DNA of 64,000 nt from Candidatus Omnitrophota bacterium (GCA_022710715.1 JAKLGJ010000001.1:362041-426040), one strand, 5' to 3'; counted from the first letter of the stretch, positions 8,911 through 40,374 are shown. The notes: generated from the letters alone by a model not told the origin. Numbers and translations are program-made.

Positions 8911-9189
8911 ATGGATCAGGCAAATCAACTAAGTGAAGCAGAGATCAAAGCAAAGATCAGAGGTTTTATCAAAGACAATTTCCTCCTGGGCAATGACGCT
9001 AAACTCCAGGATACGGATTCTTTGATGGAAAAGGGTATTGTGGATTCCACCGGTATCCTGGAAGTAGTCACCTTTGTGGAAGAGAACTTCGGCTTCAAAG
9101 TCGCAGACGAAGAGCTCCTGCCGGAGAATCTGGATTCGTTGAATCAACTCACGGCATATATACAGAAAAAGACGGTTGGAGGGGCGTAA
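8911..9189 (+). CDS. acyl carrier protein
   Basis: 92 aa, acidic, with phosphopantetheine-site DS motif (GIVDSTGILEVV). RBS GAAGGAG is present. Confidence 0.8.
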   Translation: MDQANQLSEAEIKAKIRGFIKDNFLLGNDAKLQDTDSLMEKGIVDSTGILEVVTFVEENFGFKVADEELLPENLDSLNQLTAYIQKKTVGGA

Positions 9190-9192
9190 GCA

Positions 9193-10272
9193 ATGATTAT
9201 GAATAATCCTTTAATTAGCATTATAGTTCCGACCTACAACGAAGCTCAAAATATTAACGAGTTGTTGAATCGTGTCCACGCTGCTTTAAATGGGATTGAG
9301 CATGAAATCATCGTTGTCGATGATGATTCACCGGATAAAACCTGGGAGATAGCAGAGAACAGAAGTAAAGCTGATTCATGGGTGCGGGTTATCAGACGTA
9401 AAGATCGTGGTTTAAGCAAAGCGGTGGTAGCGGGCTTTAATGAAGCTAAAGGAGAATTGTTAGGGGTTATTGACGCGGATTTGCAGCATGATGAACGTAT
9501 TTTGCCGGAAATGATAAAGAAAATCGAAGTAGCGCCTATAGTAGTCGGCTCCCGGTATGTGGAAGGCGGCGGAGTAGGCGATTGGAAGCTCGATCGGAAG
9601 ATCAAAAGCTGGTTAGCCACTAAAGTGGCTGCATTGATCTTGAATGTTTCAGTTAACGACCCGATGGCCGGTTTCTTTATCGTTAAGAAAGATGTTTACC
9701 AGAGAGTAAAAGAAAAAGTTAATCCACAAGGGTTTAAAATCCTGCTGGAGATTCTTTATCACGCTAACGTTGCTGTTGCCGAAGTTCCTTATCAGTTCAG
9801 GACCCGTCTGGCAGGAGAGAGTAAACTGTCTTCCAAGGTAGTTATTGAGTATTTTAAGCAAGTAATCCGGTTAAGAAGCACTAATCCGGTACCGGAAGGG
9901 CTTATTAAATATTCTATAGTGGGCGGCTCTGGTGTACTGGTTGATATGTTAGCTTTCGGCATCAGTTCGCATTTCCTAAAGATTCCGGTCGCCTTCTCTG
10001 GGATCATATCAAGTCAAGTTGCTATCTTTACAAATTTTATTCTCAATGATGTTTGGACTTTTGAAAGCCAGCGAGAGCAACCTTTATACGTGCGGTTTGC
10101 TAAATATGAGGCTACTTGCTTTATTGGGATCATCATTAAGTTTTTTGTTATACTTCTCACCGTAAATATATTTAGATTTAATCCTTATTTAGCGAATGGG
10201 ATAGGAATCATTCTTGTGGTCTTTAGCAACTTTATTTTTAGCAAATTATGGGTATGGAAAACACAAAAATAA
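9193..10272 (+). CDS. GT2 polyprenyl-phosphate glycosyltransferase (DPM1/ArnC-like) fused to a GtrA-like membrane domain
   Basis: ISIIVPTYNEAQNI...VVDDDSPDKT GT2 signature and DAD motif. C-terminal four-TM GtrA-like segment (IKYSIVGGSGVLVDMLAFG...). Confidence 0.8.
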   Translation: MIMNNPLISIIVPTYNEAQNINELLNRVHAALNGIEHEIIVVDDDSPDKTWEIAENRSKADSWVRVIRRKDRGLSKAVVAGFNEAKGELLGVIDADLQHDERILPEMIKKIEVAPIVVGSRYVEGGGVGDWKLDRKIKSWLATKVAALILNVSVNDPMAGFFIVKKDVYQRVKEKVNPQGFKILLEILYHANVAVAEVPYQFRTRLAGESKLSSKVVIEYFKQVIRLRSTNPVPEGLIKYSIVGGSGVLVDMLAFGISSHFLKIPVAFSGIISSQVAIFTNFILNDVWTFESQREQPLYVRFAKYEATCFIGIIIKFFVILLTVNIFRFNPYLANGIGIILVVFSNFIFSKLWVWKTQK

Positions 10273-11795
10273 ATACTACACAACTAAAAAAACACCATTC
10301 CGCCTGGCTCCTGGCGGCGATTCTTTTGCTTGCTCTTGGCATTAGGCTTGGAACTATGAATAATCATGGTGTTTGGATTGATGAAACCTGGGTAGTCACT
10401 ACTCCCAACTTTCATCTTGATTCAAAAGATATATTCCCTAAGTTTTTTGAGTATCCGCAAGTAAAAGAGCTTGCCGAATCAAAACAAGCATTGTTGAAGA
10501 AAGTATATAATATTCATCCGGTGGTACAAATATGTTTTATGCTTATCTCCGATATGCATCCGCCGTTTTACTATATAGTTTCGTACTTTTGGACTCGTCA
10601 TTTTGGCGAATCGTTATTTGCAATACGTGCATTGCCTTTATTATTCGGTTTGCTTACCATTGTATGTACTTACCTTATAGCTAAATCGCTCTTTGGGAAG
10701 AAAGTTGCTTTAATCGCAGCTTTATTTCTGGCTGTCTCACCTATGCACGTGCATTTCTCCCAAATGGCCAGAAATTTTTCCCTGATGACGTTCTTAGTAA
10801 CATTCAGTTATCTTGTTTTGCTGACTAAGCTTTTCAAAAGATTCGAACTCAAGTATGCCATTCTTTATGGCATTAGTGGATTTCTCGCTTTGCTTACCCA
10901 CTATTACTCGGTATTTTTTATCTTTACGCAGATAATCATGATAATTTTATGGGAGATCAAGGGCAAGAAGCGCTTCTTAAGATGGTTCGTAATTTTTCTT
11001 CTGATTGCGCTATTTTATACTCCTTGGCTGCCGGCCGTATATATCCAGATGTTTTTACGTAATCCTACGACTCAAAGTCAGCTGACTTCCACCAACTTGA
11101 ACACTGTTTTATCACAAATGTATGCCGTAGGTTTTATACCCTCGGTTACAACTAAATTCTTTTCTGGCGCTGTGGTAAATTTTCTAAAGATAATAAATTT
11201 GGTTGTAATCGTTTTTTTAGTTTTCTGTGGGGGTAATAAACTTAAAGCTCATGATCGTATGGCTTTTCGCTGGATATTGGTATGGTGCGGTATGCCGATT
11301 TTTTTACTTTCATGTCTTTCGTTGTTGAAACCTCTCTATTCAATCAAAAGTTTATTGCCGATTTTACCTGCTTTTTTTATTCTCTATGCGTTCGTACTCG
11401 CAAGGCTAAAAAACAAAGTTTTACTTAGTTTTATCTTGGTTTGTTTGTCCAGTATTATGTTGATTTCCCAGCTTGTCTGGCCCACTTATCCCGGGATTGA
11501 ATCGACAGAAGATACGAGAGGGGCAGTTGCACAGTTAAAAAGTTCAATAAGCTCTGAAGATATCGTAGCGGTTCAGCCGGGATTTTACAGGGACGGTTTA
11601 TGGTATTATTTACCAAGAGATTGTATGCTTTTAGACGAAGATCAAACTATTTTAATCCCGAGAGATAAAAATATTTGGTTATTCCGTTTTTGGGATAGGA
11701 ATAAATCAATACCTGAGATTGAACATGCTAATCCTGATTCAACTTATAAGTTTTTCGGAGTTTCTGCCTATTTATGGAAAAAGAGTTCCTTATGA
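10248..11795 (+). CDS. GT-C fold glycosyltransferase (ArnT/PMT-like, GT39/GT83)
   Basis: Multi-TM protein with a PMT_2/ArnT-like N-terminal region (IDETW, HPPFYYIVSYFW). Overlaps the preceding GT2 gene. Confidence 0.7.
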   Translation: MGMENTKINTTQLKKHHSAWLLAAILLLALGIRLGTMNNHGVWIDETWVVTTPNFHLDSKDIFPKFFEYPQVKELAESKQALLKKVYNIHPVVQICFMLISDMHPPFYYIVSYFWTRHFGESLFAIRALPLLFGLLTIVCTYLIAKSLFGKKVALIAALFLAVSPMHVHFSQMARNFSLMTFLVTFSYLVLLTKLFKRFELKYAILYGISGFLALLTHYYSVFFIFTQIIMIILWEIKGKKRFLRWFVIFLLIALFYTPWLPAVYIQMFLRNPTTQSQLTSTNLNTVLSQMYAVGFIPSVTTKFFSGAVVNFLKIINLVVIVFLVFCGGNKLKAHDRMAFRWILVWCGMPIFLLSCLSLLKPLYSIKSLLPILPAFFILYAFVLARLKNKVLLSFILVCLSSIMLISQLVWPTYPGIESTEDTRGAVAQLKSSISSEDIVAVQPGFYRDGLWYYLPRDCMLLDEDQTILIPRDKNIWLFRFWDRNKSIPEIEHANPDSTYKFFGVSAYLWKKSSL

Positions 11796-13246
11796 CACTG
11801 AAAGATATACTCTCAAATAGCGCAAGGAAATATTCTGACAACCAGGCAGTGATTTATCAGAAAGAACGTCTTTCCTATGCCGAATTGGAATCGCTTTCCG
11901 ACTTTATGGCTTGCCAGTTACTGGATAGAGGAGTTAGAAAAGCGGATAGAGTAGGGTTACTCCTGGAGAATTCGCCTTTATACGTGATCGCATTTTTCTC
12001 TGTGCTTAAAGCCGGGGCAGTAGTAGTTCCGATCAACACTCAACTGGTAACCCGGGAATTGGAAAGTATCATTTCGGATTGCCAACCGTCGATGATCATT
12101 ACGGATGACAGCCATAAACAATCCCTGGATACTTTCAAGGATATATCGATTTTCTCGGTAAGTTCCATCCGCTATACGCCTGTCGCCAGCCTGCAGTCTA
12201 TTCCGGCTAAGGAATCCGATCCGGCAATGATCATTTATACTTCCGGGACTACCGGTAAGCCCAAAGGCGTGATGCTTTCCCATCGTAACTTGGTAGCCAA
12301 TGCCGAGTCTATTGTTGATTACTTAAAACTATCTTCATCCGATTCGATGATGGTTATTTTGCCTTTTTATTATTCCTACGGTAATTCATTGCTTACCACC
12401 CATATCATGGTCGGTGCGACGTTAGTCATAGATAACCGTTTTGTTTTCCCTAACGTTGTTCTGGAAACCATGGAAAAAGAGAAAGTAACCGGGTTTGCTG
12501 GCGTCCCGTCTCATTACGCCATACTTTTGCGCAAATCAGCTTTACGCAATTATAAACTAACCAGCTTGCGTTATGTGACTCAAGCCGGGGGTGGAATGCC
12601 GGCTTCGATGATCAAGGAATTTACCGAAGTTGTGCCGCATGCGCAGTTTTTTGTGATGTATGGACAGACTGAAGCCACTGCCCGGTTGACCTATCTTGCG
12701 CCGGAGCATCTACGATCAAAATTAGGATCTATCGGTAAAGCTATTCCGGGAGTTGAGCTGGATGTGTTGAATGAGCAGGGCCAGCCGGTTCAGAATGGTG
12801 AAGTAGGCGAGATTGTGGCTCGCGGTAATAATATCATGCTAGGGTATTGGAATGCTGCTGAAGAAACCGGGAAAGTTAAGAGAAAAGAAGGCCTCTGGAC
12901 CGGGGATATGGCCAAAGTCGATAGCGATGGTTTTATCTATCTTATCAGCCGCAAGAAAGAGATGATCAAAAGCGGCGCCAATCGCATCAGCCCGTTGGAG
13001 ATCGAGGATGTAGTAAGCCGTTTGCCTGGCGTAGTAGAATGCGCGGCTGTAGGCGTTCCGGATGAGATTTTGGGTGAATCGATCAAGCTTTGCGTGGTTA
13101 AAAATGGAGTTCCCTTAACCAATAACGATATTCTCCTGCATTGCAAACAGCATTTAGCTCCCTTTAAGATGCCTAAAGAAGTGGCATTTGTGGCGTCTTT
13201 ACCCAAGACCAGTACAGGTAAGATCAAACGAAGCGAGTTAAAATGA
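11792..13246 (+). CDS. AMP-dependent acyl-CoA/acyl-ACP ligase (exosortase-locus ligase-like)
   Basis: AMP-binding motif IIYTSGTTGKPKGVMLSHRN, YGQTE and a C-terminal lysine motif. ATGA overlap with the upstream stop favours start 11792 over 11774. Confidence 0.85.
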   Translation: MTLKDILSNSARKYSDNQAVIYQKERLSYAELESLSDFMACQLLDRGVRKADRVGLLLENSPLYVIAFFSVLKAGAVVVPINTQLVTRELESIISDCQPSMIITDDSHKQSLDTFKDISIFSVSSIRYTPVASLQSIPAKESDPAMIIYTSGTTGKPKGVMLSHRNLVANAESIVDYLKLSSSDSMMVILPFYYSYGNSLLTTHIMVGATLVIDNRFVFPNVVLETMEKEKVTGFAGVPSHYAILLRKSALRNYKLTSLRYVTQAGGGMPASMIKEFTEVVPHAQFFVMYGQTEATARLTYLAPEHLRSKLGSIGKAIPGVELDVLNEQGQPVQNGEVGEIVARGNNIMLGYWNAAEETGKVKRKEGLWTGDMAKVDSDGFIYLISRKKEMIKSGANRISPLEIEDVVSRLPGVVECAAVGVPDEILGESIKLCVVKNGVPLTNNDILLHCKQHLAPFKMPKEVAFVASLPKTSTGKIKRSELK

Positions 13247-14208
13247 GCTTCCACAAAGAGATATTGAGGATAGACTGCACGAAGGAAGCTGAAAGAATAT
13301 GTGAATTTATTCGTCAGCAGACTTTGCGCTTGAAGCGCGACGGCGCGGTGATCGGTTTAAGCGGCGGTATCGATTCTGCTTTGAGCGCGGCCTTGTGCGT
13401 TAAAGCCTTGGGCAAAGACAAAGTATTCGGCTTGATGCTTCCGGACAAAGAATCCAGCCCGCAAAGTGAAGAATTCGCGGTTAAACATGCCAAACAGCTG
13501 GGTATCAGAGCTGAAACGGTGAGTATTACGCCGGTTCTGGAAGCTTTCGGTACTTATGAGAAGCGCGATGCGGTCGCCAAGTCAATCTTTTCGGAATTTG
13601 ACAACACCTATAAACTCAAGATCACCTTACCGGCAGATCTGCTGAACAAAGACTCTTATAACTTTTTTACTTTAACTATTGTGGATGACAAAGGTAATAC
13701 CAAATCTTCCCGGTTAAACAACGCCCAAGCTAAAGGCATTATCGCTGCCACTTGCACCAAGCATCGCACCCGGATGATGACCCAGTATTACTACGCCGAG
13801 AAAATGAACTATTTTGTCTGCGGCACCACTAATAAAAGCGAAGCTTTGCAGGGTTTGTTTGTGAAATACGGCGATGGTGGGGTGGATATAGAGCCTATCG
13901 CGCATTTGTTCAAAGCACAGATATTCCAATTGAGCGAGTATATGGGCGTGATCAGCGAGATCCTGCAGCGCAAACCCTGCCCGGACACCTACAGCGCCCC
14001 GGTTACCGATGAAGAGTGGTATTTTCGCATGCCTTATGGCATACTTGACCTATTGCTTTATGCCTGGGGAAAAAAAGTTGATATCTCTGAAGTCTGCAAA
14101 GTTATGAATTTAACCCAAGATCAGGTGGACCGTGTATTTAAGGATTTTAGTAATAAATTCAATGCTACAAAACATCTAAACGAAATTCCCCCGACAGTAG
14201 GAGCTTAA
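13243..14208 (+). CDS. PP-loop ATP pyrophosphatase, NAD synthetase (NadE)-like
   Basis: SGGIDS PP-loop plus a NadE-like block CGTTNKSEALQGLFVKYGDGGVDIEPIAHLFKAQIFQLSEYMGV. Confidence 0.65.
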   Translation: MSFHKEILRIDCTKEAERICEFIRQQTLRLKRDGAVIGLSGGIDSALSAALCVKALGKDKVFGLMLPDKESSPQSEEFAVKHAKQLGIRAETVSITPVLEAFGTYEKRDAVAKSIFSEFDNTYKLKITLPADLLNKDSYNFFTLTIVDDKGNTKSSRLNNAQAKGIIAATCTKHRTRMMTQYYYAEKMNYFVCGTTNKSEALQGLFVKYGDGGVDIEPIAHLFKAQIFQLSEYMGVISEILQRKPCPDTYSAPVTDEEWYFRMPYGILDLLLYAWGKKVDISEVCKVMNLTQDQVDRVFKDFSNKFNATKHLNEIPPTVGA

Positions 14209-14210
14209 CT

Positions 14211-15206
14211 ATGAAAATCTGCACTAAATGTATTCTTCCCGAAACATTCCCGGGTATCCACTTTGATAAGGAAGGCGTTTGCAATTTCTGCAGAGATTTC
14301 AAAGGCGAAGAAGCTTTGGAGACCGAAAAAAAAGAATATCACGAGAAATTTCTTAAATTGATCGAAGAAATCAAGGGGAAGAGTGCTTACGACTGTACTT
14401 TAGCATATTCCGGCGGAAAAGATAGCACATATACACTCTATTTGTTGAAAGAAGTTTTTAATTTAAGACCGCTCACCATTACTTTTGATAACGGTTTTAT
14501 ATCCGATCAAGCATTTAAGAATATTCGAACCGTAACCGAGACTTTAGGTGTAGATAACATTGTTTTCAAGGCTGATTTCCAATTATTAAAGAAAATATTC
14601 ATTGCAGGGATAGAGAATACTATGTATTCGGCCAAAGCTCTTGAGAGAGCTAGCACTATTTGCACATCCTGTATTGGTTTTGTTAAGTTTACTGTATTAA
14701 AAATTGCTCTGGAAAAGCATATCCCGCTTATGGCCTGGGGGTGGTCGCCGGGGCAAGCACCTATCAGATCTTCAATAATGAAAGTTAATGCGGCTTTGTT
14801 TAAAACAACTCAAGAAATGTATCGTAAACCAATGTTTGAAGTTGCTGGTGAACAAGTTAATAGATATTTTTTGACTGATGAACAGTTTATGTCCATCAAT
14901 TTTCCTTATAATGTTAGCCCGTTAGCTTTCATGGATTATGATGAGGAAAAAATCAAAGAGAAAATTAAAGATTTTGGATGGGAGATCCCAGGTGGCTTAG
15001 ATGCAAATTCAACTAATTGTTTGCTAAATACCTTTGCTAATCATGTCCATATCAAGAAACACAATTTCCATCCCTATGCCTTTGAGATTGCTGGGATGGT
15101 GCGGTCCGGAATAATTGAAAGGCAAGAAGGATTGAATAAGTTTGGAGAAGAAGCAAGTAGTATTAAAAATCTGGAATACATCAAAAAGAAACTAAGGATT
15201 TTTTGA
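14211..15206 (+). CDS. N-acetyl sugar amidotransferase (WbuX/PseA-like PP-loop enzyme)
   Basis: N-terminal zinc ribbon CTKC...CNFC followed by the SGGKDS PP-loop. Confidence 0.75.
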   Translation: MKICTKCILPETFPGIHFDKEGVCNFCRDFKGEEALETEKKEYHEKFLKLIEEIKGKSAYDCTLAYSGGKDSTYTLYLLKEVFNLRPLTITFDNGFISDQAFKNIRTVTETLGVDNIVFKADFQLLKKIFIAGIENTMYSAKALERASTICTSCIGFVKFTVLKIALEKHIPLMAWGWSPGQAPIRSSIMKVNAALFKTTQEMYRKPMFEVAGEQVNRYFLTDEQFMSINFPYNVSPLAFMDYDEEKIKEKIKDFGWEIPGGLDANSTNCLLNTFANHVHIKKHNFHPYAFEIAGMVRSGIIERQEGLNKFGEEASSIKNLEYIKKKLRIF

Positions 15207-15252
15207 TTGGACTTTGTGAAGTGAAAAATAAAAACTTAAAAAGAGGTAAGGA

Positions 15253-16065
15253 GTGAGAAATTCTATTAAGATGGTGAGTTTATTATTGATTGTTTTTTCT
15301 TCTTATGGGGGAGCCATGAAAGAGGATGACGCAACATGTGCAGGGATGGAGCAGATATTGACTGAGGTGTCGAAGAAGAAAATTTTCTTTGGTCATCAGT
15401 CGGTTGGCAATAATATTATAGGTGGGATAAGTCGAATCCTAGAAAGTTGTTCTGATAATCGGTTGGTGATTAAAGAGACGTCTGATGCTAACGATCTTAA
15501 TCTTCCAATTTTCGCTCATGCAAGACTTGGCCGTAATCTTGACCCCAAGCTTAAATGTGATGAATTTAAAAGAGTTTTGGATAGCGGGATTGGCAATCAA
15601 GTCGATGTGGCGATGTTAAAATTTTGTTATGCGGATATTGATGAAAATACAAACATTAAAGAGGTGTTCAAATACTACCGTGCAACCTTTTTATATTTGG
15701 AAAAAAAGTATCCCAGAGTTAGATTTATCCATTTAACTGTGCCGGTAACAGTTAGTCAGAATCCATTAGGATTAAAAGCCAGGATTAAAAGATTATTCAG
15801 AAAAGAACTTTATGGGGAGAAAGGAAACGTAAATAGAAATAAATTCAATGCTTTATTAACCAGTTTTTATAATAAAAATAACTTAATTTTCGATCTTGCG
15901 AAAATTGAGGCTACTAAGCCAGACGGGAGTTTGAACATCTTTAAGGCTGGTGACGGCTATAAATATTATGTACTTGTTGAAAGCTATTCCGATGATGGTG
16001 AACATCTGAATTATGTGGGTGGAAAAATTGTTGCTAAAGAATTATTGAAATTCATTACGGAGTAG
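15253..16065 (+). CDS. hypothetical secreted protein
   Basis: GTG start with an AAGAGG RBS, or ATG at 15271. Signal peptide MVSLLLIVFSSYGGA. No motif I recognise. Confidence 0.5.
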   Translation: MRNSIKMVSLLLIVFSSYGGAMKEDDATCAGMEQILTEVSKKKIFFGHQSVGNNIIGGISRILESCSDNRLVIKETSDANDLNLPIFAHARLGRNLDPKLKCDEFKRVLDSGIGNQVDVAMLKFCYADIDENTNIKEVFKYYRATFLYLEKKYPRVRFIHLTVPVTVSQNPLGLKARIKRLFRKELYGEKGNVNRNKFNALLTSFYNKNNLIFDLAKIEATKPDGSLNIFKAGDGYKYYVLVESYSDDGEHLNYVGGKIVAKELLKFITE

Positions 16066-16068
16066 AGA

Positions 16069-16887
16069 ATGGAAGAATTTAAATTTATTAATAATAGAGT
16101 GGGGAAGAAGCTGTATGGAGTTCTACATTTTCCTGCTAACCGAGAATCAAAAGAAGTTTTTGTTTTTTCTTCCCCGACTTTTGGCGAAAAAACTAAGTCT
16201 TATCGTGTCTTGGGCAACTTTGCCAGGCTTTTGGCTTTAAATGGTTATTGGGTATTTAGATTTGACTTTATGGGTGAGGGGGATAGTGAAGGAGACTTTA
16301 AAGAGGCTTCTATTAGAACCAGGATAGAAGATCTTTATTCGGTCATTGATTACCTTCAGAGTGAAATTAAACAACAAGATATTGTATACAATATCTTTGG
16401 TGCAAGGCTAGGAGCAACAATTGCTTCAGCATTCGCGCGCGAAAAATTAGTGAAAATCGGAAAATTAGTTATGTGGGATCCGGTTATTGATCCTGCTCAA
16501 TATTTATTGGAATTCTTGCGGGGAAATTTATCCAATCAATTGTTGATACATAGAAAAATTCTGCTGAATCGGGAAGATCTTGTTAATCAAATTAAATCAG
16601 GATTAGAGGTTAATGTTGATGGTTGGATTGTTGGAAAGGAGCTTTGGGAGCAGGCAGCGACAATGAATTTGTTTGTGGATTTAGAGAGAATCACTATCCC
16701 TTGTTTCATAAGCTTATCCTTGGGATTAGATAAAAAACTATTCGGCGCAGAAAAAAACGTTCATAGATCAAATTTTACTTTGTTTAATGCACCGCAAGAA
16801 TTTACATGGAGTGATTGGAAAAACTATAATCCTTCTCCTGAGATTATATTTGATAAAACACTTAATTGGATAAACGAGAATAAATGA
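16069..16887 (+). CDS. alpha/beta-hydrolase-fold protein (exosortase-associated hydrolase-like) with an atypical nucleophile elbow GARLG
   Basis: Size, secondary-structure pattern and position suggest an alpha/beta hydrolase. The nucleophile position holds Arg instead of Ser or Cys. Confidence 0.55.
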   Translation: MEEFKFINNRVGKKLYGVLHFPANRESKEVFVFSSPTFGEKTKSYRVLGNFARLLALNGYWVFRFDFMGEGDSEGDFKEASIRTRIEDLYSVIDYLQSEIKQQDIVYNIFGARLGATIASAFAREKLVKIGKLVMWDPVIDPAQYLLEFLRGNLSNQLLIHRKILLNREDLVNQIKSGLEVNVDGWIVGKELWEQAATMNLFVDLERITIPCFISLSLGLDKKLFGAEKNVHRSNFTLFNAPQEFTWSDWKNYNPSPEIIFDKTLNWINENK

Positions 16888-17834
16888 TGGAAGAGATCGT
16901 AACCTTCAATAATAAAGATAATTTGCGACTTGTAGGCATTGAAACAATTCCTGTTGCTCCTAATCCTGTTAGGAAAGGAGTTATCCTTCTGAATACAGGA
17001 GTAAATTATAGGATTGCTTGGCATCGTCTCAATGTTAAATTAGCCAAATTTTTGTCAGAAGAAGGTTTTTTTGTATTAAGATTCGATACCCATGGCATTG
17101 GAGATAGCGAAGGTGAGTTAAAAAGGGGCAATATTGTAGATATTTTTGAAGCTATTCAAAAGGGTTTGTTTGTTGATGATACAATCAAGGCGATCAAGTA
17201 TTTCAAGGAAAAAGAGAAATTAAATAAAATATATTTATTAGGTTTGTGTGGAGGCGCTCTGACAGCAATGTATGCAGCTTCAAAGGTTAGAGAAGTCGAA
17301 GGCATTATTCATATTGCTGGCCCGATAACGCTTTCTTCTGAACACCATCTTGAGAATAAGCACCCTTGGGAAGCAAGGAATACTTTGCTCCAGTATGGCC
17401 ATAAAATCATTAGTTTTAATGCATGGTTACGGTTTTTCTCCGGGGCAAGTGAGTATAAAACGATACACACTTCGTTAAAGACTTTATTTGGTTCATTCCT
17501 TCGAACGAAGCGTCTTAAGAAGTTTAGTAAATTCAAGAAAGATGTAGAGAACGAGCAAGATAATAAATCTTGGGATAATTTGAATATCGATTTTATAGAA
17601 AGCTTTAAAAATTATTGTGCTTCTGGCAGGAAAATATTATTCATCTTTGCTGATAAAGATGCTGCGACTTGGGAATTTCGCACCATGTTTTTGAATACTT
17701 TATTGAAGAAAGAAAAGTATAAAAAGAACTATAAATATTCTGAAATCAATGATACCAATCACATTTTTTCCTCCACAACTTCACAGGAAACGCTGAAAGT
17801 ATTGATTAAAACTTGGTTTATTGATAATGCGTAA
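16884..17834 (+). CDS. alpha/beta-hydrolase-fold protein with a Cys nucleophile elbow (GLCGG), dienelactone-hydrolase-like
   Basis: LGLCGGALTAMYAAS nucleophile elbow. Paired with the preceding hydrolase-like gene. Confidence 0.6.
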   Translation: MMEEIVTFNNKDNLRLVGIETIPVAPNPVRKGVILLNTGVNYRIAWHRLNVKLAKFLSEEGFFVLRFDTHGIGDSEGELKRGNIVDIFEAIQKGLFVDDTIKAIKYFKEKEKLNKIYLLGLCGGALTAMYAASKVREVEGIIHIAGPITLSSEHHLENKHPWEARNTLLQYGHKIISFNAWLRFFSGASEYKTIHTSLKTLFGSFLRTKRLKKFSKFKKDVENEQDNKSWDNLNIDFIESFKNYCASGRKILFIFADKDAATWEFRTMFLNTLLKKEKYKKNYKYSEINDTNHIFSSTTSQETLKVLIKTWFIDNA

Positions 17835-17844
17835 GGAGACAACT

Positions 17845-18840
17845 ATGGAGACCATGCTCCATAAAAGTCCTTTAGTTAGTGTTATAATTCCCACTTATAA
17901 TCGAGCAATGTTTATTGTAGAAGCCGTTAAGAGTGTTTTGAATCAAACATTCAAGGATTACGAGTTAATTATTGTTGATGATGGATCGAAAGATAAAACG
18001 AAAGAGATTCTTGAACCATATAAAGCACAAATCCGCTATGTATATCAAAATAACAAGGGGCATGCATCGGCGCGAAATACTGGGATTAGAATGGCTGTCG
18101 GGAAATATATAGCGTTTAATGATTCTGATGATATTTTGCTGCCGAACACTTTAGAGATTTTGGTTGATTTTATGCAGCGGGTGAACGATGTGGGATTAAC
18201 TTTCGTTGATATGGAAGTTTTTGAAGGTGATAAGATAGTCAATCCATCTTTTTTATCAAACAAAACTCATCTTAGACGTATTCCATTCCTTCCTTATCCT
18301 AATAAAGCGAGATTACTAAATCAGAATAGTTTTAATGAGCAGATAAAAGAATACTTTATTCCTTCTCCTGGAACAATGATAAGAAAAGAGGTATTTGAAC
18401 AAGTAGGGCTTTTTGACGAGTCTCTGTTTAATCAGGCTGATCGAGATATGTGGTTCAGGATTAGTCGCAACTATAAAATTGCTTATATTAATGATATTTT
18501 AGTGAGATGCCGACAACACGGGGGTAATTTTAGAGTTAATACGGAATTTATTATCAAATCGCATATACAGCTTTTTTTGAAAGTTATTGGAACCTATGTC
18601 GGGATTTCAAATAAAACCAGGAATATTATTCTCAAGAAGCTTTCTTTAGAATATTACGAATTAGGTTACTACTACTATTCCCGACAACAAATGAAACTGG
18701 CTAGAAGTGCTTTTCTAACCAGTTTGCACTATGATGCAAACAATTTGAAATCGGGATTATACTATACACTCACTTATCTTCACCCCGGAATTCTAGAAAA
18801 AATTAAGAGATTCAGAAAATTGTACGTTACTCCACATTAA
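17845..18840 (+). CDS. GT2 family glycosyltransferase
   Basis: VSVIIPTYNRAMFI...IIVDDGSKDKT and DSDD motif. RBS AAGGAGA lies 5 nt before the ATG at 17845. Confidence 0.85.
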   Translation: METMLHKSPLVSVIIPTYNRAMFIVEAVKSVLNQTFKDYELIIVDDGSKDKTKEILEPYKAQIRYVYQNNKGHASARNTGIRMAVGKYIAFNDSDDILLPNTLEILVDFMQRVNDVGLTFVDMEVFEGDKIVNPSFLSNKTHLRRIPFLPYPNKARLLNQNSFNEQIKEYFIPSPGTMIRKEVFEQVGLFDESLFNQADRDMWFRISRNYKIAYINDILVRCRQHGGNFRVNTEFIIKSHIQLFLKVIGTYVGISNKTRNIILKKLSLEYYELGYYYYSRQQMKLARSAFLTSLHYDANNLKSGLYYTLTYLHPGILEKIKRFRKLYVTPH

Positions 18841-18856
18841 GCATTTCGAAAAACCA

Positions 18857-20371: not shown

Positions 20372-20486
20372 AGTAATTGAGCTTAGTGCAATACCAACAA
20401 GGAAAGTACAAGAAGTTGGCGTTTTTTTGATCGTCATAATAACCAATCTAAACTTGTGCAAATTCTTATTTGGTTGGAGGTGATTG

Positions 20487-22394
20487 ATGCAAGGAATATT
20501 CGGTTGTTTTAAGAAAAAAGATATTTCTTGTTTGTCTGCTAGGTCACTCATCGAGAAGATGAGTGCGATTTTGGGGGAGGGGCAATCTTTACAGCCGAAA
20601 AGAATCTATATTAACAAAAAGACAGAACTTTCTTTTTATGGAAATTCTAGCAATTTCAAGGCGCGCACTTTTAAAACTCATGAACAAGTTTTGCATATTA
20701 TCTTACACGGAAAAATTTTTAATTTCACCTCGGATGCTTTAATCTCGTATAGAAGCGATGGGATGGATGATTTAGAAAAAATTAGAGATCTCTATGAGAA
20801 ACACAAAGAGAACACTGGTTTATTCTTGGATGGAGAGTTCAATGTAGTCATATATGATGAGTTTTTGGGCCGTCTTACAATCCTCAACGATCGGTTTGGA
20901 TTTAAAAACCTGTATTTCTATGAAGACGAGAATTTATTCATTTTTGGTCCTACAATCGCTTCTCTTTTAGTGTATGCTCATACTAATAAGAGAATTGATA
21001 TCTCATCTGTGTCCGACTTCTTTCACTATGGATATCTTCTAAGCAATAAAACGCTCTTTAAAGAAATAAAAATGTTAAGAGGTGGATCAGTTTTAATCAT
21101 AGACTCGGATAACCCCGGTGTTACTAAACAATATTGGGATTTTCATTCTGTAGACAAAAATTCTTCAGGTACCCTTCAATCTTGCGCCGAGAAAACCTTT
21201 TCTCTGCTTTCGGCTGCTGTTAAAAAGAGAGTAGAGGGGAACTCTAGGATTATTGTTCAAATTAGCGGCGGTCTTGATTCCAGAATGATCGCAGCTTTGG
21301 TTAGAGCAGCTGGGCGTGAATTTGCAGCGGTAACTTTTGGAGCAAGAAAATGTCGTGAAGTGTTACTTGCCCGAGAAGTTGTTGTTAAATTGCGCTGTGA
21401 TAGCCATTTAATAAAAGAAATAAGGCCTCAAGGATTCGTTGGTTCGATTATGGAAACTTTGAAAAATACTGAATGTCAATGTGAAAGCTTAGGATTGTCA
21501 GGTCCATATAGCACAATGAAAGAGACATTGGCTAACAATCAATTTGATTTGCTTCTAGGAGGGTTTTGTGGGGATTTAATACTAGGAGGAAGTTTCCTTA
21601 GGAGAGATGGAGTAATAAATAGTAATGAGAATTTAGATCAAGTAGCACAGTATTTGTTTAATCTCATGGAAGGTCCAGAACTCGCTCCTTTTCAAGCCTC
21701 AATCTTTACGGAAGTTATGCAAGAAAACTTTACACGCTACCGACTTTCAAATATTAAAAACGAGTTAAAGATAATCAGTGATAAAGTCGATTCCTATGGG
21801 GATCTGTTGGACTGGTTTATAATAACAAACAAAATTTTTCACTTTATTAACTATGCACAGAGAAATAATACTATTCATGTTAAAGAGTTTTACCCGTTTT
21901 TTGATTACGAATTTTTCGATTTTGTTTACTCTCTTCCGTTGTCGATGAGAAAGAAGCACCGGATCTATAAGGAAATCTACAAAATGCAGTTTCCGGAATT
22001 GGCGGAAATTCCTTGGTTGAAGAGCGGAGTTAATCTATATTCGAATCCAGGAAAATTAAGGACTTTTATTCGTAAGCAGGTAATCAGTTTTTCTCAGGCT
22101 GTAAGCCGTTTGAGTTTTGGTAAGATGAATATCGATAATCCGTATGCATATGCTAATTACGACAATTGGTTTCGAACGGATAAGACTTTTAGACAAATTA
22201 TTGAAAAGGTTCTGATGGATCCCAGAACGATTGAGCGTGGGTATTACTCAAAAACCGGTCTGAGGAATCTATTAAACATGCAGAAGAATGGGAAAAACTA
22301 TTTTACTTTAATAGATAGGTTATTTACTTTCGAAATGTGGAATCGCTTGTTTATTGATAATCAAGGTGTTGGCAATTCTATGAATGCTTTCTAG
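20487..22394 (+). CDS. asparagine synthase family amidotransferase paralog lacking the N-terminal Cys nucleophile
   Basis: SGGLDS PP-loop and an AsnB-like C-terminal domain. N-terminus is MQGIFGC instead of MCGI. RBS GGAGGTG is present. Confidence 0.75.
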   Translation: MQGIFGCFKKKDISCLSARSLIEKMSAILGEGQSLQPKRIYINKKTELSFYGNSSNFKARTFKTHEQVLHIILHGKIFNFTSDALISYRSDGMDDLEKIRDLYEKHKENTGLFLDGEFNVVIYDEFLGRLTILNDRFGFKNLYFYEDENLFIFGPTIASLLVYAHTNKRIDISSVSDFFHYGYLLSNKTLFKEIKMLRGGSVLIIDSDNPGVTKQYWDFHSVDKNSSGTLQSCAEKTFSLLSAAVKKRVEGNSRIIVQISGGLDSRMIAALVRAAGREFAAVTFGARKCREVLLAREVVVKLRCDSHLIKEIRPQGFVGSIMETLKNTECQCESLGLSGPYSTMKETLANNQFDLLLGGFCGDLILGGSFLRRDGVINSNENLDQVAQYLFNLMEGPELAPFQASIFTEVMQENFTRYRLSNIKNELKIISDKVDSYGDLLDWFIITNKIFHFINYAQRNNTIHVKEFYPFFDYEFFDFVYSLPLSMRKKHRIYKEIYKMQFPELAEIPWLKSGVNLYSNPGKLRTFIRKQVISFSQAVSRLSFGKMNIDNPYAYANYDNWFRTDKTFRQIIEKVLMDPRTIERGYYSKTGLRNLLNMQKNGKNYFTLIDRLFTFEMWNRLFIDNQGVGNSMNAF

Positions 22395-22435
22395 AACATG
22401 CCTGTTCTTCTGCTTAAGGGAGTGCTATTTACAAT

Positions 22436-23599: not shown

Positions 23600-23601
23600 T
23601 T

Positions 23602-24849
23602 ATGCTTTTTTTCTGTCTTCTTCTTTTTATAGTCATTACATATATTCAACCGCAGGATTTTATTCCAATCGTCAAGGGCTTGCCCATTGTATATTTTCTT
23701 TTAATGTTCCTCGGTATACTTTGGTCTTTTCGATTATTAACAAAAGGAGATTTAAAGTTAGGAAAAGCACCACAAAATATCCTTATGTTTTTATTCTGGA
23801 TAGCTATTACTCTTTCAACCCTTAAGGTCGCTTGGTTTCCGTATACTCTTGAGATATTTTTAGAATGGTCTAAAGTAATAATAATTTATTGTTTTGTTGT
23901 TACTATAGTTAATTCGGAAGAAAAATTAATAGCGACTAATTGGGCAATCGTTCTTTCAATATTAATAACGGCTTGGTTGGGGATTTTGCAAAACTTTGGA
24001 TTGGATTTTACTGGTTTGGGAACTCATCTAGCAGGCCGGATTAGAGGTGTGGGGATTTTTGGAACCAACCAGTTGGCTTACGCCATGTGTTTTACTCTTC
24101 CTTTGGTCTTTTATTTATTTAGAATAACTCCCAAAATACTTCCCAGAATTTTGCTTATCCTAACAGCTATCTCTTTGGGCTACTGCACTTTTCTTACACA
24201 ATCCAGGGGTGGATTGCTATGTTTTTCGATAGTGATTTTACTCACTTTTATCTCATTTACGAAGAAAAAAAGAATTAAATTATTAGGAATTGTTTTAAGT
24301 ATCGCTATATTCATTCTCCTAATAAAATTCGCTCCGCGGTTCTCAAGCACTTTTGAATATCAGGAAGATGCGTCTGCAGTCAATAGGTTGAATGCTTGGG
24401 CTGATGGGTTAAGTATGGCCAAGGAAAATCCATTATTTGGAATTGGGAAGAATCAATTTGTTGAGACTTTTAAAATAGCCGCACATAATTCATTTATTGA
24501 GACATTAACTGAAGTGGGATTTGTCGGTTTATTTATCTGGTTAGGACTTTTCTCCCTTACGCTAAGGAATTTACGTGCAATATTTAAAAATGATACTAAT
24601 AATTCAACCGCAATGAGGATTTACAGCAAGTATCTTTCAATAAGCTTTTATGCTTATCTGATTGGTTCTTATTTTTCTGCGAGTTCTTATTATATTCCTC
24701 TTTATATCTTGTTTGCATTGAGTGTTATTCTTCAGAATTTATTATACCGTGAAGAATTAAGTTATATTCGTTGGAAGGATTTAGGCAACATTGCTTTTAT
24801 TGAAATTGGAGTGTTAATCTTCATTCATTTAGTAGCGAGGTTTTCTTAG
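23602..24849 (+). CDS. O-antigen ligase / Wzy-like polymerase family membrane protein
   Basis: About 10-12 TM helices and a periplasmic loop containing AAHNSFIETLTEVGFVGL (Wzy_C-like). Confidence 0.75.
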   Translation: MLFFCLLLFIVITYIQPQDFIPIVKGLPIVYFLLMFLGILWSFRLLTKGDLKLGKAPQNILMFLFWIAITLSTLKVAWFPYTLEIFLEWSKVIIIYCFVVTIVNSEEKLIATNWAIVLSILITAWLGILQNFGLDFTGLGTHLAGRIRGVGIFGTNQLAYAMCFTLPLVFYLFRITPKILPRILLILTAISLGYCTFLTQSRGGLLCFSIVILLTFISFTKKKRIKLLGIVLSIAIFILLIKFAPRFSSTFEYQEDASAVNRLNAWADGLSMAKENPLFGIGKNQFVETFKIAAHNSFIETLTEVGFVGLFIWLGLFSLTLRNLRAIFKNDTNNSTAMRIYSKYLSISFYAYLIGSYFSASSYYIPLYILFALSVILQNLLYREELSYIRWKDLGNIAFIEIGVLIFIHLVARFS

Positions 24850-24850
24850 A

Positions 24851-26212: not shown

Positions 26213-26243
26213 TTATCAGAAGTGCTAAGATTATGCAAATAAT

Positions 26244-27419: not shown

Positions 27420-27442
27420 TGAAATCTGGAGCGTGTGTGATG

Positions 27443-28117: not shown

Positions 28118-28213
28118 TCCAGTAAGTTTGTTAACATCCAAGTTTATATAGAGTTTTAGCAGGTCTTGTTTTCTAATATAATAGGACCTGTTAATGCAAT
28201 AAGGCTAGATTAA

Positions 28214-29341
28214 ATGAGTAATAAAAAGATCAATGTGATGCATATTCAAGAATCGTTAGATGTTGGTGGAATGGAAAATGGGATTGTCAATCTAGCCAAT
28301 CATCTAAATGGAGAATATTTTAAGGTTACGTTGTGCTGTCTTAACAAAATGGGTTCTTTATGCAATAGAGTAAATGACAAAAGGGTGAGAATTATTAATA
28401 TGGAACAGAAAGAGGGATTGGCACTGTTTTTGGTTTTTAAATTAATCAAAGTTCTTAGAAAAGAGAAGATAGGGATTGTGCACACGCATAACTTTTACAG
28501 TGGTTTATATGGAATTATTGCGGCTCGATTAGCTGGTATTCACGTCGTAATTCATGGCGAACATGGGACAACGATCTTAAACAAGCCAATTAGAATTCTG
28601 GCAATGCGTTTTCTCTCCCGATGTGTTGATAAGTTATTTGCTGTTTCTCATGACTTGAAGGAAGAATTGATGAAAAAGTTAAATATATCCGGCACTAAGA
28701 TAGATGTTCTTGTTAATGGAGTAGATATTGAGCACTTTAGAGCTGCTAAAGAGGCGTGGAATTTAAAAAATGATCTGGGAATCCCGGTCTCCAACTTTAT
28801 AGTTGGGAGCGTCGGGCGGCTTGTCCCTATAAAGAACTTTAAGTTGTTGATTGGTGTTAAGAAAAAACTTGATCTCGCTGGGTTTAATACTAGTTGTATA
28901 ATAATAGGAGCTGGACCCTGCAGAGCAGAACTGGAAAATTATGCCAAAGAGATCGGCACAGAGATTTTGTTTTTGGGGGAACGTGATGATATCTCCGACC
29001 TTTTGGCGATTTTTGATCTTTTTGTACTGACTTCTTTGAATGAAGGAATGTCAAATACCATTCTCGAAGCTATGGCTTGTGGAAAACCAGTGATTGCAAC
29101 TCAAGTGGGGGGGAATTTGGAGCTGGTAGAAGAAAACAAAACCGGATTTCTGGTCCCGTCAGATAATCTTGAAGAATTATTTAATGCCATTGTAAAGCTC
29201 ATAAATAACAAAAAGTTGCTTGCTCATTTTGGTCGCTGTGCTAGAGATACGGTAGAACAAAAATTTTCTCTGCAAGCGATGGTTAAGAATTACGAGCATG
29301 CATATTTAACACTTGCCCAAAAGAAAGGGTTATTGGATTAA
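28214..29341 (+). CDS. GT4 family glycosyltransferase
   Basis: EX7E motif EGMSNTILEAMACGKPVIATQVGGNLE. Confidence 0.85.
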   Translation: MSNKKINVMHIQESLDVGGMENGIVNLANHLNGEYFKVTLCCLNKMGSLCNRVNDKRVRIINMEQKEGLALFLVFKLIKVLRKEKIGIVHTHNFYSGLYGIIAARLAGIHVVIHGEHGTTILNKPIRILAMRFLSRCVDKLFAVSHDLKEELMKKLNISGTKIDVLVNGVDIEHFRAAKEAWNLKNDLGIPVSNFIVGSVGRLVPIKNFKLLIGVKKKLDLAGFNTSCIIIGAGPCRAELENYAKEIGTEILFLGERDDISDLLAIFDLFVLTSLNEGMSNTILEAMACGKPVIATQVGGNLELVEENKTGFLVPSDNLEELFNAIVKLINNKKLLAHFGRCARDTVEQKFSLQAMVKNYEHAYLTLAQKKGLLD

Positions 29342-29343
29342 AC

Positions 29344-31227
29344 ATGTGCGGTATTTGTGGGTTGATAAATCTTGATAAAAGGTGTCTTTTTGATGAGCGC
29401 GTTGTTAGTGCAATGACGGATACATTTAAACATCGTGGCCCGGATGATGCAGGTTCTTTTATCCATAATGCAGTTAATCTTGGACATAGGCGCTTAAGTA
29501 TCATTGATTTAGCTACCGGCCATCAGCCGCTTTCTAATGAGGATGGCAGTTGCACCATTATTCTGAACGGAGAGATCTACAATTATCGGGAATTGCAAAA
29601 GGATTTGCAGCATAAAGGACATGCTTTTAAGACGCATTCGGATACGGAAGTAATCGTTCATGCCTACGAAGAATATGGATTTAAATGCATTGAAATGTTT
29701 CGGGGTATGTTTGCTTTTGCTCTCTGGGATGAAAAGAAGCAGATTCTTTTCCTGGCCCGAGACCGTTTAGGGAAAAAACCGCTTTATTACTATGCAGATT
29801 CACTGCGTTTGATTTTTGCTTCAGAGATCAAAGCGCTTCTTAAAACGGGTCTTATGAAGGCGGAGGTTAACCACGCGGCGATTGATGAGTTCCTTTCTCT
29901 GGGATATGTTATTGCTCCGAATACTTTGTTTAAAAATATCAAGAAGGTTTTGCCTGGGAATATTGTTGTTGTCAAAGAGGGGAAGTTTACGCAGCAGCCA
30001 TATTGGAATTTAGAGGAGGTTCAGAACGAGAATCGTTCTTTTAATGCTTTTCAGGTAGAGTTGAGAGCAGTCTTGGATGAATCTGTACGGTTGCGGATGA
30101 TCAGCGATGTTCCTCTTGGAGCTTTTTTAAGCGGCGGGATTGATTCCAGTATTATTGTCGGTATTATGAGCAAGTTTTCTAAGCAGCCAGTGAAGACATT
30201 CTCCGTAGGGTATAAAAATCAGGAAGAGTTCAGCGAACTTAGTTATGCCAAGATTGTCGCTGATTTCTTCAAGACAGAGCATCATGAGATATTTCTTGAG
30301 CCTGTAGATTTTTATGAAGCTATCCCACGAATGGTTTGGCATCTGGATGAGCCGATAGCTGATCAGGCATGCATTCCTTTATGGCTTATGTCTAAGGAAG
30401 CAAAGAAATACGTTACGGTTTTGCTTTCCGGAGAAGGTTCCGATGAGTTATTTGCCGGTTATCCTATTTATTCTCTAATGCTGGGATTGGAACAGTATCA
30501 GCATATTCCTCAGTGGATGCGTATTCATTGTATCGATCCGCTGATCCCCCGTATCTTGGGAGAAAGGCGCGGGCAAAAATACGTGGAGTGGTCTCGTTTG
30601 CCGCTGGAAGAAAGATTTCTGGGAGATATGGCGGATTTTTCTACCCATCTCAGACAGCAGCTGTATTCCGCAGATTTTCTAAATTTTTCTTCAAAAAATG
30701 ATTTTCGGAGCGTGATTCGCTCTTTTTACGATAAGGTTCACGGAAGGGATGTTCTGGACAGGATGCAGTACCTGGATATGAAAACATGGCTTGTTGATGA
30801 TCTGCTACTTAAAGCAGATAAAATGACCATGGCTGCTTCGGTGGAGTTGAGATGTCCTTTTCTGGATCATAAGCTGGTTGAATTAAGCCGGAAAATTCCT
30901 TCAAGGTTGAAGCTTAAAGGTGTGACAACCAAGTACATCCTTAAAGAAACCTATAAGGATTTTCTTCCGAAGGATATTGCTTACAGAAAAAAAAGGGGTT
31001 TCCCTGTGCCTTTGACCAGTTGGTTCCAAGGGGATTTGAACAAACAGATTGAGACTGTTTTGCTGGATAAACGCTCCCAAGAGAGGAATTTTTTTAATAG
31101 TAATTTTATCAAAGAGATAATTGAGAAACAATCCGGTGGAAAAGAAGATTATAGCAAATTGTTATGGAGTTTGCTGGTTTTAGAGTATTGGCATCGTGTC
31201 TTTATAGATGGAGATCCTATTGAGTAA
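29344..31227 (+). CDS. asparagine synthase (glutamine-hydrolysing), AsnB-like; candidate exosortase-associated amidotransferase
   Basis: MCGICG N-terminal Cys nucleophile, HRGPDD, SGGIDSS PP-loop and the full AsnB C-terminal domain. Confidence 0.85.
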   Translation: MCGICGLINLDKRCLFDERVVSAMTDTFKHRGPDDAGSFIHNAVNLGHRRLSIIDLATGHQPLSNEDGSCTIILNGEIYNYRELQKDLQHKGHAFKTHSDTEVIVHAYEEYGFKCIEMFRGMFAFALWDEKKQILFLARDRLGKKPLYYYADSLRLIFASEIKALLKTGLMKAEVNHAAIDEFLSLGYVIAPNTLFKNIKKVLPGNIVVVKEGKFTQQPYWNLEEVQNENRSFNAFQVELRAVLDESVRLRMISDVPLGAFLSGGIDSSIIVGIMSKFSKQPVKTFSVGYKNQEEFSELSYAKIVADFFKTEHHEIFLEPVDFYEAIPRMVWHLDEPIADQACIPLWLMSKEAKKYVTVLLSGEGSDELFAGYPIYSLMLGLEQYQHIPQWMRIHCIDPLIPRILGERRGQKYVEWSRLPLEERFLGDMADFSTHLRQQLYSADFLNFSSKNDFRSVIRSFYDKVHGRDVLDRMQYLDMKTWLVDDLLLKADKMTMAASVELRCPFLDHKLVELSRKIPSRLKLKGVTTKYILKETYKDFLPKDIAYRKKRGFPVPLTSWFQGDLNKQIETVLLDKRSQERNFFNSNFIKEIIEKQSGGKEDYSKLLWSLLVLEYWHRVFIDGDPIE

Positions 31228-40210: not shown

Positions 40211-40294
40211 TTTGCAATGTTAAGCTTTTTTATTGCATTACGCTAAATGTTTTCTGGCGTTCCTTAACAATATTGCGTTCGATTTTTTACGTTA

Positions 40295-40323: not shown

Positions 40324-40374
40324 CTAGTAGAAGAAAAAAATTAGCCAGATCATTATCATAATTCTTGCAGAACT

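Follow-up and report, generated by a model that had tools for sequence, protein, structure and literature searches.

A divergent XrtA-type carrier-protein, ligase and hydrolase cassette in an Omnitrophota exopolysaccharide operon, with a predicted Cys enzyme and a predicted Arg pseudo-hydrolase

Beside exosortase A (XrtA), a cassette has been catalogued as curated TIGRFAM/NCBIfam models to which no chemistry is assigned. It is composed of an acyl carrier protein (ACP), an acyl ligase (TIGR03098), a pyridoxal phosphate (PLP) decarboxylase (TIGR03099) and two 'hydrolases', hydrolase 2 (TIGR03101) and hydrolase 1 (TIGR03100). A small carrier protein and an adenylating ligase also stand together in the surface-glycan loci of DltA/DltC D-alanylation and of the Vibrio cholerae O1 RfbK-O tetronate module, where transfer to the glycan follows. 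The locus described here lies in a stretch of 64,000 nucleotides (the window) from a Candidatus Omnitrophota bacterium (GCA_022710715.1, JAKLGJ010000001.1:362041-426040), within a metagenomic contig of 1.62 Mb. The window was examined together with 10 kb on each side and compared with 58 related loci; many of these sequences come from metagenome-assembled genomes, and the starts of their open reading frames (ORFs) are approximate. The locus is a divergent, horizontally mosaic variant of the catalogued cassette, and its enzymes are not broken: the residues at the nucleophile elbow of its two hydrolase-like proteins, Arg in the hydrolase 2-like protein (hydr2) and Cys in the hydrolase 1-like protein (hydr1), are, by alignments and model scores, the norm of their families, the curated XrtA-associated models included.

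An earlier reading made from the sequence alone (the sequence-only reading) had described here an exosortase-A-type set of ACP, ligase, hydrolase pair and two asparagine-synthase-family (AsnB) paralogs, with deviant catalytic motifs. The genes and the motifs GARLG, GLCGG, MQGIFGC and MCGICG were all recovered from the translated ORFs where it had placed them, and NCBIfam and Pfam scores bore out the gene identities (Table 1). For the ligase the identity stood but not the start, which had been put at 11792: the Joint Genome Institute (JGI) call is 11774, and 11792 is an internal ATG, from which the gene would overlap the upstream stop by 4 nt. The assignment to an exosortase-A-type set held in part. 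XrtA-associated families are the closest ones for the ligase, both hydrolases, one AsnB and the O-antigen-ligase-like gene, but each score is below its curated cut-off, and by these thresholds the locus is therefore not a member. No exosortase was found in the window with a profile built from three XrtA proteins, by which distant exosortases could be missed, nor among the Pfam-annotated genes 10 kb on each side. With the same profile, the co-occurrence that had been expected was seen within 10 kb of the hydrolase pair in only 1 of the 58 related loci (L016). No homologue of the certified Sphingomonas TIGR03099 decarboxylase was present in the window or in the 58 loci, and FemAB and PrsK/PrsT genes were not found in the window.

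The evidence on the hydrolases comes from alignment, models and conservation. hydr2 carries IFGARLGAT, with Arg113 at the position of the nucleophile Ser. Profile alignment places this Arg exactly on the GxSxG serine of solved esterases (9pir, 9pjb), with no His or Asp at the places matching the other catalytic residues. In an AlphaFold model (predicted local distance difference test, pLDDT, 92.3), Arg113 occupies the nucleophile elbow, with strand 106-112 before it and helix 114-124 after it, and the nearest folds are those of PET46, TTL lipase and feruloyl esterases (template modelling score, TM, ~0.77). Since Arg replaces the nucleophile and both His and Asp are missing, hydrolysis by the classical mechanism is not expected, and the earlier proposal that hydr2 is non-catalytic as a hydrolase agrees with our alignment, from which we predict a pseudo-hydrolase. 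The Arg is kept in 30/30 aligned homologues and in 51 of 53 genome loci; in the two others (L027 and L033) Gly replaces it (GLGLG).

The second protein, hydr1, carries LLGLCGGAL and a candidate triad Cys122-Asp259-His293. The elbow Cys is invariant among 104 aligned sequences (103 database homologues and the window protein) and is found in 42/43 genome loci, the single exception being a broken ORF. His293 is equally invariant (104/104), and Asp259 is present in 76/104. Against the solved esterases 9pjb, 8b4u, 7wwh and 9pir, Cys122 aligns exactly on the GxSxG serine and the His on the catalytic His, an N-H in hydr1 being aligned with the catalytic D-H of these enzymes. hydr1 is thus predicted, as had been suggested, to use a Cys nucleophile in a Cys-His(-Asp) triad. 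Among Pfam families the LuxD-type Acyl_transf_2 matches hydr1 with 23.0 bits, above its cut-off of 20.3, and DLH with 20.6 bits, just below its cut-off of 21; the model of class III PhaC gives a weak match to residues 102-157 that covers the elbow. Polymerisation of the polyhydroxyalkanoate (PHA) synthase type was considered for hydr1 and dropped, its sole support being a partial match of 23 bits.

The sequence-only reading had called both motifs deviant, and this did not survive. The hydr2 and hydr1 relatives that we collected are all below the TIGR cut-offs (79-146 bits against TIGR03101), and no certified TIGR03101 or TIGR03100 member was reached by protein and genome searches. The curated models were probed separately by in-silico mutation, which shows the preference of a model and is not a direct view of its seed alignment. 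Against TIGR03101, replacement of the Arg lowered the score of the window protein from 83.5 to 80.3 (Ser) or 80.1 (Ala), and that of a relative (P0039) from 146.2 to 143.0 (Ser) or 142.8 (Ala). Against TIGR03100, window hydr1 fell from 104.8 to 98.8 (C122S) or 99.2 (H293A), a loss of about 6 bits, and the certified Sphingomonas member from 181.1 to 175.0. These losses indicate that the curated models expect Arg in hydrolase 2 and Cys with His in hydrolase 1.

That certified member is encoded on a plasmid of Sphingomonas parapaucimobilis (NZ_CP155749, L064), in a bona fide XrtA locus that comprises exosortase A, the XrtA amidotransferase, the PLP decarboxylase, an ACP and an AMP ligase. The hydrolase 1 named there by PGAP has GNCDA and DSH and scores 181.1 bits with TIGR03100. 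It adjoins a 231-aa hydr2-like protein with SIRGG; 120/120 homologues of this neighbour keep the Arg within x-x-R-[GS]-G, in a set formed by a single sphingomonad clade of 'hypothetical' proteins. When the plasmid collection was searched, tblastn with a hydr2 relative returned only generic alpha/beta hydrolases, and no other plasmid carried a locus of this type with a certified hydrolase 1. That Arg and Cys would be a locus-specific deviation from active Ser-type members, by decay or neofunctionalisation in this genome, is already contradicted and has next to no probability. Its one argument is that all XrtA-type family scores are below cut-offs, so that the locus is divergent; both residues are nevertheless kept in every clade examined and rewarded by the curated models, and the AsnB without Cys2 has hundreds of relatives that also lack it.

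The two genes are tightly associated. In the window the hydr2 stop and the hydr1 start overlap by 4 nt (ATGA). Both genes were present in 41 loci, and in 34 of them the distance from the hydr2 stop to the hydr1 start is -32 to +17 nt, with an overlap in 27; translational coupling of the pair is predicted from this arrangement. Neither protein has an N-terminal signal peptide. Each matches the other's model and the two are therefore paralogues; most simply read, one would be the catalytic subunit and the other its inactive partner. The pair was found in polysaccharide gene clusters from Nitrospira, Acidobacteriota, Desulfobacterota, Gammaproteobacteria, Omnitrophota and further groups, usually with a family 2 glycosyltransferase (GT2) gene before it and a flippase, GT4 genes and an O-antigen-ligase-like gene after it.

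A larger module was recognised in six distant loci (L004, L016, L028, L035, L051 and L055), where the NadE-like gene, as the sequence-only reading had grouped it, stands with the ligase, hydr2 and hydr1. An ACP was detected in five of the six, a gene for an SGNH-like protein of the type encoded at 15253 also in five, and an intact AsnB in three (L016, L051, L055). In the related Omnitrophota locus (L004) the genes run ACP, ligase, NadE, WbuX, 15253-type gene, hydr2, hydr1, GT2, Wzx. The ACP of the window is 28% identical (E 4e-8) to that of the bona fide XrtA locus and scores 17.9 bits with Pfam PP-binding, below the cut-off of 20.8. Its ligase is 32% identical over the full length to the Sphingomonas ligase, and the generic long-chain-fatty-acid CoA ligase model (PRK06187) scores slightly above TIGR03098. 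By score, and by its PP-loop GLSGGIDSA, the NadE-like protein belongs to NF002048 (PRK00876); compared with solved NadE structures (aligned to PDB 2e18), it has an insertion of about 70 aa. Its place beside the ligase and hydrolase genes, kept across loci, suggests a substrate other than nicotinic acid adenine dinucleotide (NaAD). We consider it very improbable that chance brought together in this operon housekeeping genes without a common function (NAD synthase, asparagine synthase, fatty-acid CoA ligase, ACP of fatty acid synthesis). The NadE-like protein does pass an NAD synthase subfamily cut-off, the intact AsnB that of generic asparagine synthase, and the top ligase match is to a fatty-acid CoA ligase model. 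Against this, the same combination recurs in conserved order, adjoining the hydrolase pair, in Omnitrophota, Desulfobacterales and several Acidobacteriota, the reading frames overlap or nearly abut, and the ACP scores far below the cut-offs for ACPs of fatty acid synthesis.

Of the other two genes of this segment, the WbuX-like one is conserved only in the Omnitrophota relative L004, and no NCBIfam match to a HisH- or HisF-type partner was obtained among the scanned window ORFs. The 15253-type gene recurs with the module in nine loci. Its product has a hydrophobic N-terminus, and the residues of its SGNH-like blocks (Table 1) are invariant in seven homologues, two of which give weak Lipase_GDSL_2 matches (best E 5.5e-4). 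A search of PDB sequences with this protein gave no match, and a single-sequence fold model (pLDDT 36.5) was too poor for use. To judge from these motifs, an exported esterase or acyltransferase of the SGNH type is probable.

From these data the reading that we prefer, tentatively and with slightly less than an even chance, is that the locus is a variant of the XrtA/PEP-CTERM 'ACP-ligase-hydrolase 2-hydrolase 1' cassette in a Wzx/Wzy-type exopolysaccharide operon, serving a carrier-protein-dependent acylation of the polysaccharide whose chemistry we infer. The ligase would adenylate a carboxylic acid and load it on the dedicated ACP. A PP-loop enzyme may neutralise a second carboxylate of the acyl group, NadE-like here and an intact AsnB in some relatives, the PLP decarboxylase doing so in canonical loci; that the acyl group has such a second, neutralised carboxylate is speculation, prompted by an amidating enzyme standing where canonical loci have the decarboxylase. 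Cytoplasmic hydr1 would accept the acyl group on Cys122 from the ACP thioester, in the way that LuxD and PhaC load their own nucleophiles, and would transfer this group to a sugar in the lipid-linked repeat unit before flipping. hydr2 would be its non-catalytic partner, with the Arg probably binding an anionic group: the phosphopantetheine phosphate, an acidic ACP surface or a uronate. The exported SGNH-like protein may edit or relocate the ester outside the cytoplasm. Separately, the intact AsnB and the WbuX-like protein would amidate and amidinate N-acetyl-hexosaminuronic acids, made by GlmM, the sugar dehydrogenase, the TviC-like epimerase and WecB.

Several points weigh against this proposal. 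In most loci with the pair (e.g. Nitrospira L008), neither a dedicated ACP gene nor a ligase gene lies within 10 kb, and FemAB/GNAT-like, deacetylase and ATP-grasp genes are found instead; the pair is therefore not strictly dependent on an ACP and a ligase nearby. The matches to LuxD and PhaC are weak, and the closest solved relatives are ordinary esterases. Synteny is the sole ground for an action of the NadE-like enzyme on an ACP-bound acyl group, and motifs with two weak Pfam matches are the ground for the SGNH assignment. Literature searches returned nothing on these hydrolases or their active sites and no biochemical data for any member.

The esterase relationship also feeds a different explanation, in which hydr1 is a true hydrolase, either a type II thioesterase-like editing or release enzyme acting on the ACP or a polymer de-esterase, with no acyl transfer to sugar. 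Its nearest solved relatives are esterases and lipases, the trans-acting alpha/beta hydrolases DcsB (7d78) and GrgF (6lzh), which cleave ACP thioesters, are among the weaker matches, and dienelactone hydrolase itself has a Cys nucleophile (the DLH match above). On the other hand, the Cys is invariant in hydr1, and exchange of a hydroxyl for a thiol is typical of thioester-exchange enzymes such as PhaC. An obligatory inactive partner and a position between GT2 and flippase genes also fit biosynthetic transfer better. We hold this explanation to be unlikely.

The PEP-CTERM protein encoded 1 nt upstream of the ACP gene raises another alternative. This unusually small protein (107 aa) contains a lipobox-like LPGC and a run of Gly, and its C-terminal end is VIPEPATMGLLLGGAALIFIKNNRAKEQ. 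PEP-CTERM ORFs also lie immediately upstream of the hydr2 homologue in two Acidobacteriota loci (L024, 9064-9969; L052, 9540-9986) and near the pair in L034 and L054, and the closest families of the cassette are defined by co-distribution with exosortase A. The cassette might then build an acceptor or anchor for exosortase-cleaved PEP-CTERM proteins and not a polymer decoration, hydr1 transferring an ACP-borne acyl or aminoacyl group to this acceptor. The same acceptor idea has been raised for FemAB/VimA-type genes of these loci (PMC7468200). It is opposed by the lack of a detected exosortase in the window and of an annotated one in its flanks, by the single related locus with an exosortase near the pair, and by the glycosyltransferases and flippase that flank the pair, as modification of a repeat unit would predict. 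We give this alternative a low probability. An equally low one goes to a more specific model that combines both outcomes: hydr1 and hydr2 as an obligate heterodimeric Cys-dependent transacylase, in which the Arg would dock phosphopantetheine/ACP or an anionic sugar, and which with the ACP, the ligase and the carboxylate-neutralising enzyme would make a new amide- or ester-linked decoration or an exosortase acceptor for PEP-CTERM proteins.

The two AsnB paralogs differ. In the first, the loss of Cys2 was confirmed, and alignment with the intact paralogue shows that the NGE glutaminase motif is also lost (HGK), the PP-loop SGGLDS being kept; its ORF opens one codon earlier, at TTG. An MC start is found in none of its 150 nearest cluster representatives; in 127/150 the third residue is Gly (M-x-G), and most begin MPG[IL]. 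It has one close relative only (52% identity) and is absent from L004 and the other loci, and the AsnB genes adjoining the pair elsewhere all start MCGI. The Cys-less protein, which the sequence-only reading had listed as a recurrent member, is thus placed by these comparisons in a large Cys-less clade, outside the conserved module. The intact paralogue has MCGICG with Cys2 and the PP-loop SGGIDS, and TIGR03108 is its best match, though below the cut-off. For this type the view that the chemistry is not established is outdated: WbpS, WbqG and PGN_1234, of the same family, convert a uronic acid to a uronamide (PMC7468200). A putative uronamide role fits the upstream genes for uridine diphosphate-N-acetylhexosaminuronic acid (UDP-HexNAcA).

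All genes named by the sequence-only reading belong to a single operon on the + strand that spans 159 to about 40200 and whose genes abut or overlap. Its 5' part encodes export, chain-length, ATPase and tyrosine-kinase proteins, whose best NCBIfam matches are the XrtA/PEP-CTERM versions TIGR03027, TIGR03007, TIGR03015 and TIGR03018, each below its cut-off. There follow genes for GlmM, a GlmU C-terminal-domain protein, a nucleotide-sugar dehydrogenase and a TviC-like epimerase, then the PEP-CTERM gene, and then the ACP gene onward; a WecB gene is also in the operon. The O-antigen-ligase-like gene has TIGR03097 (XrtA-associated putative O-glycosylation ligase) as closest family, and such a gene is found no more than 10 kb from the pair in about 30 loci. 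The G+C content at third codon positions (GC3) falls in steps near 8.9 kb and 14.2 kb: the upstream genes have about 0.66, those of the ACP, ligase and NadE-like protein about 0.5, and the part that begins with the WbuX-like gene and ends at 40.2 kb about 0.3. It steps again at 40-44 kb and is back at 0.6 in the giant gene at 42380. The variable part of the operon is therefore compositionally foreign, and such a GC3 mosaic is the pattern typical of horizontally exchanged glycan loci. The GT2-GtrA and PMT_2/GT-C genes have a GC3 of 0.37-0.40, against 0.48-0.53 in the flanking genes. We take them for an insertion between ACP and ligase, because the ligase directly follows the ACP in L004, and place them on this comparison outside the conserved module. 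Together (9193-11795) they resemble an ArnC/ArnT-like pair.

Table 1. Coordinates of the main features in the window, with the match or motif on which each name is based
Feature	Coordinates	Strand	Basis
Small PEP-CTERM protein, 107 aa	8586..8909	+	TIGR02595 20.6 bits (cut-off 16)
Dedicated acyl carrier protein	8911..9189	+	DS phosphopantetheine motif; NCBIfam ACP models, top NF052616 48.6 bits, all below cut-offs
GT2-GtrA fusion	9193-10272	+	NCBIfam scan
PMT_2/GT-C glycosyltransferase	10248-11795	+	NCBIfam scan
Adenylate-forming acyl ligase	11774..13246	+	TIGR03098 405.9 (cut-off 592.35); PRK06187 430 (cut-off 476)
NadE-like PP-loop ATP-dependent amidating enzyme	13243..14208	+	NF002048 394.3 bits (above cut-off 313); Pfam NAD_synthase match
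WbuX/PseA-like N-acetyl-sugar amidotransferase (PP-loop)	14211..15206	+	TIGR03573 170.2 bits (cut-off 203.2)
Exported protein with SGNH/GDSL-like blocks	15253..16065	+	FFGHQSVG with Ser50, G93-x-N95, D248-x-x-H251
hydr2-like alpha/beta-fold putative pseudo-hydrolase	16069..16887	+	TIGR03101 83.5 bits (cut-off 202.75)
hydr1-like alpha/beta-fold enzyme	16884..17834	+	TIGR03100 104.8 bits (cut-off 168.45)
GT2 glycosyltransferase and Wzx-type flippase	17821..20371	+	Downstream of hydrolase pair, likewise in many related loci
AsnB-family protein without Cys2	20487..22394	+	Starts MQGIFGC; TIGR01536 119 bits (cut-off 267)
O-antigen-ligase/Wzy-like membrane protein	23602..24849	+	TIGR03097 122.8 bits (cut-off 188)
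Intact glutamine-dependent AsnB-family amidotransferase, WbpS type	29344..31227	+	TIGR03108 626.8 (cut-off 816.9); TIGR01536 549.4 (cut-off 267)

Other features of the operon and its surroundings were observed on the way. The XrtA-type ATPase homologue (2396-3394) has a Cys-rich C-terminal tail (CCTACQQYNNCPLKW...CCDSCQDYLHC) outside the region matched by TIGR03015. The GlmU C-terminal-domain protein (5584-6177) is a stand-alone left-handed beta-helix acetyltransferase of 197 aa, with no uridyltransferase domain matched. A protein of 387 aa (22436-23599), with a membrane helix at its N-terminus and the His-rich motifs DHFEP, EMHMHHN and HGDW, has no Pfam or NCBIfam match and is kept in the Omnitrophota locus L004 (502 bits) and in Rhodanobacter sp. 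L36 (L060, 359 bits). At 38675-40210 is encoded a polytopic membrane protein of 511 aa, without NCBIfam or Pfam match and without similarity to XrtA. Farther downstream lies a tandem duplication (40293-41800 and 42298-43800, spacing 2005 nt). Identity between the copies is 99% over the first 300 nt, of which 82 nt precede the start codon, and 72-79% over the remainder; each copy begins the gene of a secreted protein (601 aa and 3221 aa) with a CFI-box-CTERM sorting domain at its end. Just beyond the right end of the window (L065, record 830577-851143), two giant surface-protein genes are followed by genes of type II secretion/pilus-like character, for T2SSC, a T2SSG pseudopilin and PilN, and by that of an unannotated protein of 1842 aa.

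For this window alone the result is modest, but hydrolase 1 as a Cys-His enzyme and hydrolase 2 as an Arg pseudo-enzyme would give a testable model, in which a catalytic/non-catalytic pair exchanges carrier-protein thioesters. The family-level assignment of the active sites of the two 'hydrolases' is a useful by-product, and the Nitrospira, Acidobacteriota, Desulfobacterota, Gammaproteobacteria and Omnitrophota that carry them matter for flocs, biofilms and soil aggregates.

Compared with known systems, the two hydrolase-like proteins are closest to the group of feruloyl esterases, PET46 and TTL lipase (Hydrolase_4; 8b4u, 7q4h, 7wwh, 9pir, 9pjb; E 1e-22 to 1e-36), with which they share the fold, the loop RFD-x-x-G-x-GDSEG and a lid. 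This group is Ser-His-Asp, whereas hydr1 has Cys for Ser and hydr2 has Arg for Ser and neither His nor Asp. LuxD, with its Ser nucleophile, and PhaC, with Cys in a G-x-C-x-G-G box, resemble hydr1 in the elbow G-L-C-G-G-A and in the His and Asp; the matches are partial, hydr1 is much smaller than PhaC, and nothing points to polyester synthesis. The DltA/DltC and RfbK-O systems are similar to the window in having a dedicated carrier and an adenylating ligase in a glycan locus, and no sequence relation was shown beyond the generic ACP and ligase families. Their transferases are an MBOAT protein with DltD, or RfbO, in contrast to the alpha/beta-fold Cys enzyme with its putative pseudo-enzyme partner found here.

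Like beta-lactam synthetase, carbapenam synthetase and the lasso-peptide cyclases, the Cys-less AsnB has kept the PP-loop synthetase domain and lost the N-terminal Cys; unlike them, it falls in a separate large clade whose members mostly start MPG[IL]xG, and the lasso-cyclase model gives it 80 bits, far below the cut-off of 525. With WbpS, WbqG and PGN_1234 (eps_aminotran_1, TIGR03108), the intact AsnB shares the family, Cys2, the PP-loop and a locus with a UDP-HexNAc dehydrogenase and a TviC-like epimerase; it differs in scoring below the TIGR03108 cut-off of 817 and in having a predicted activity only. From the XrtA cassette itself, as in the Sphingomonas plasmid locus, the window departs by the GT2-GtrA/GT-C pair inserted between ACP and ligase, by scores below cut-off, by the exosortase, FemAB and PrsK/PrsT genes not found, and by NadE-like, WbuX-like and SGNH-like genes in place of the PLP decarboxylase. 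It shares with this cassette the best-match families, the order ACP, hydr2, hydr1, the Cys and His of hydr1, the elbow Arg of hydr2, the adjacent XrtA-type export, chain-length, ATPase and tyrosine-kinase genes, and a PEP-CTERM protein.

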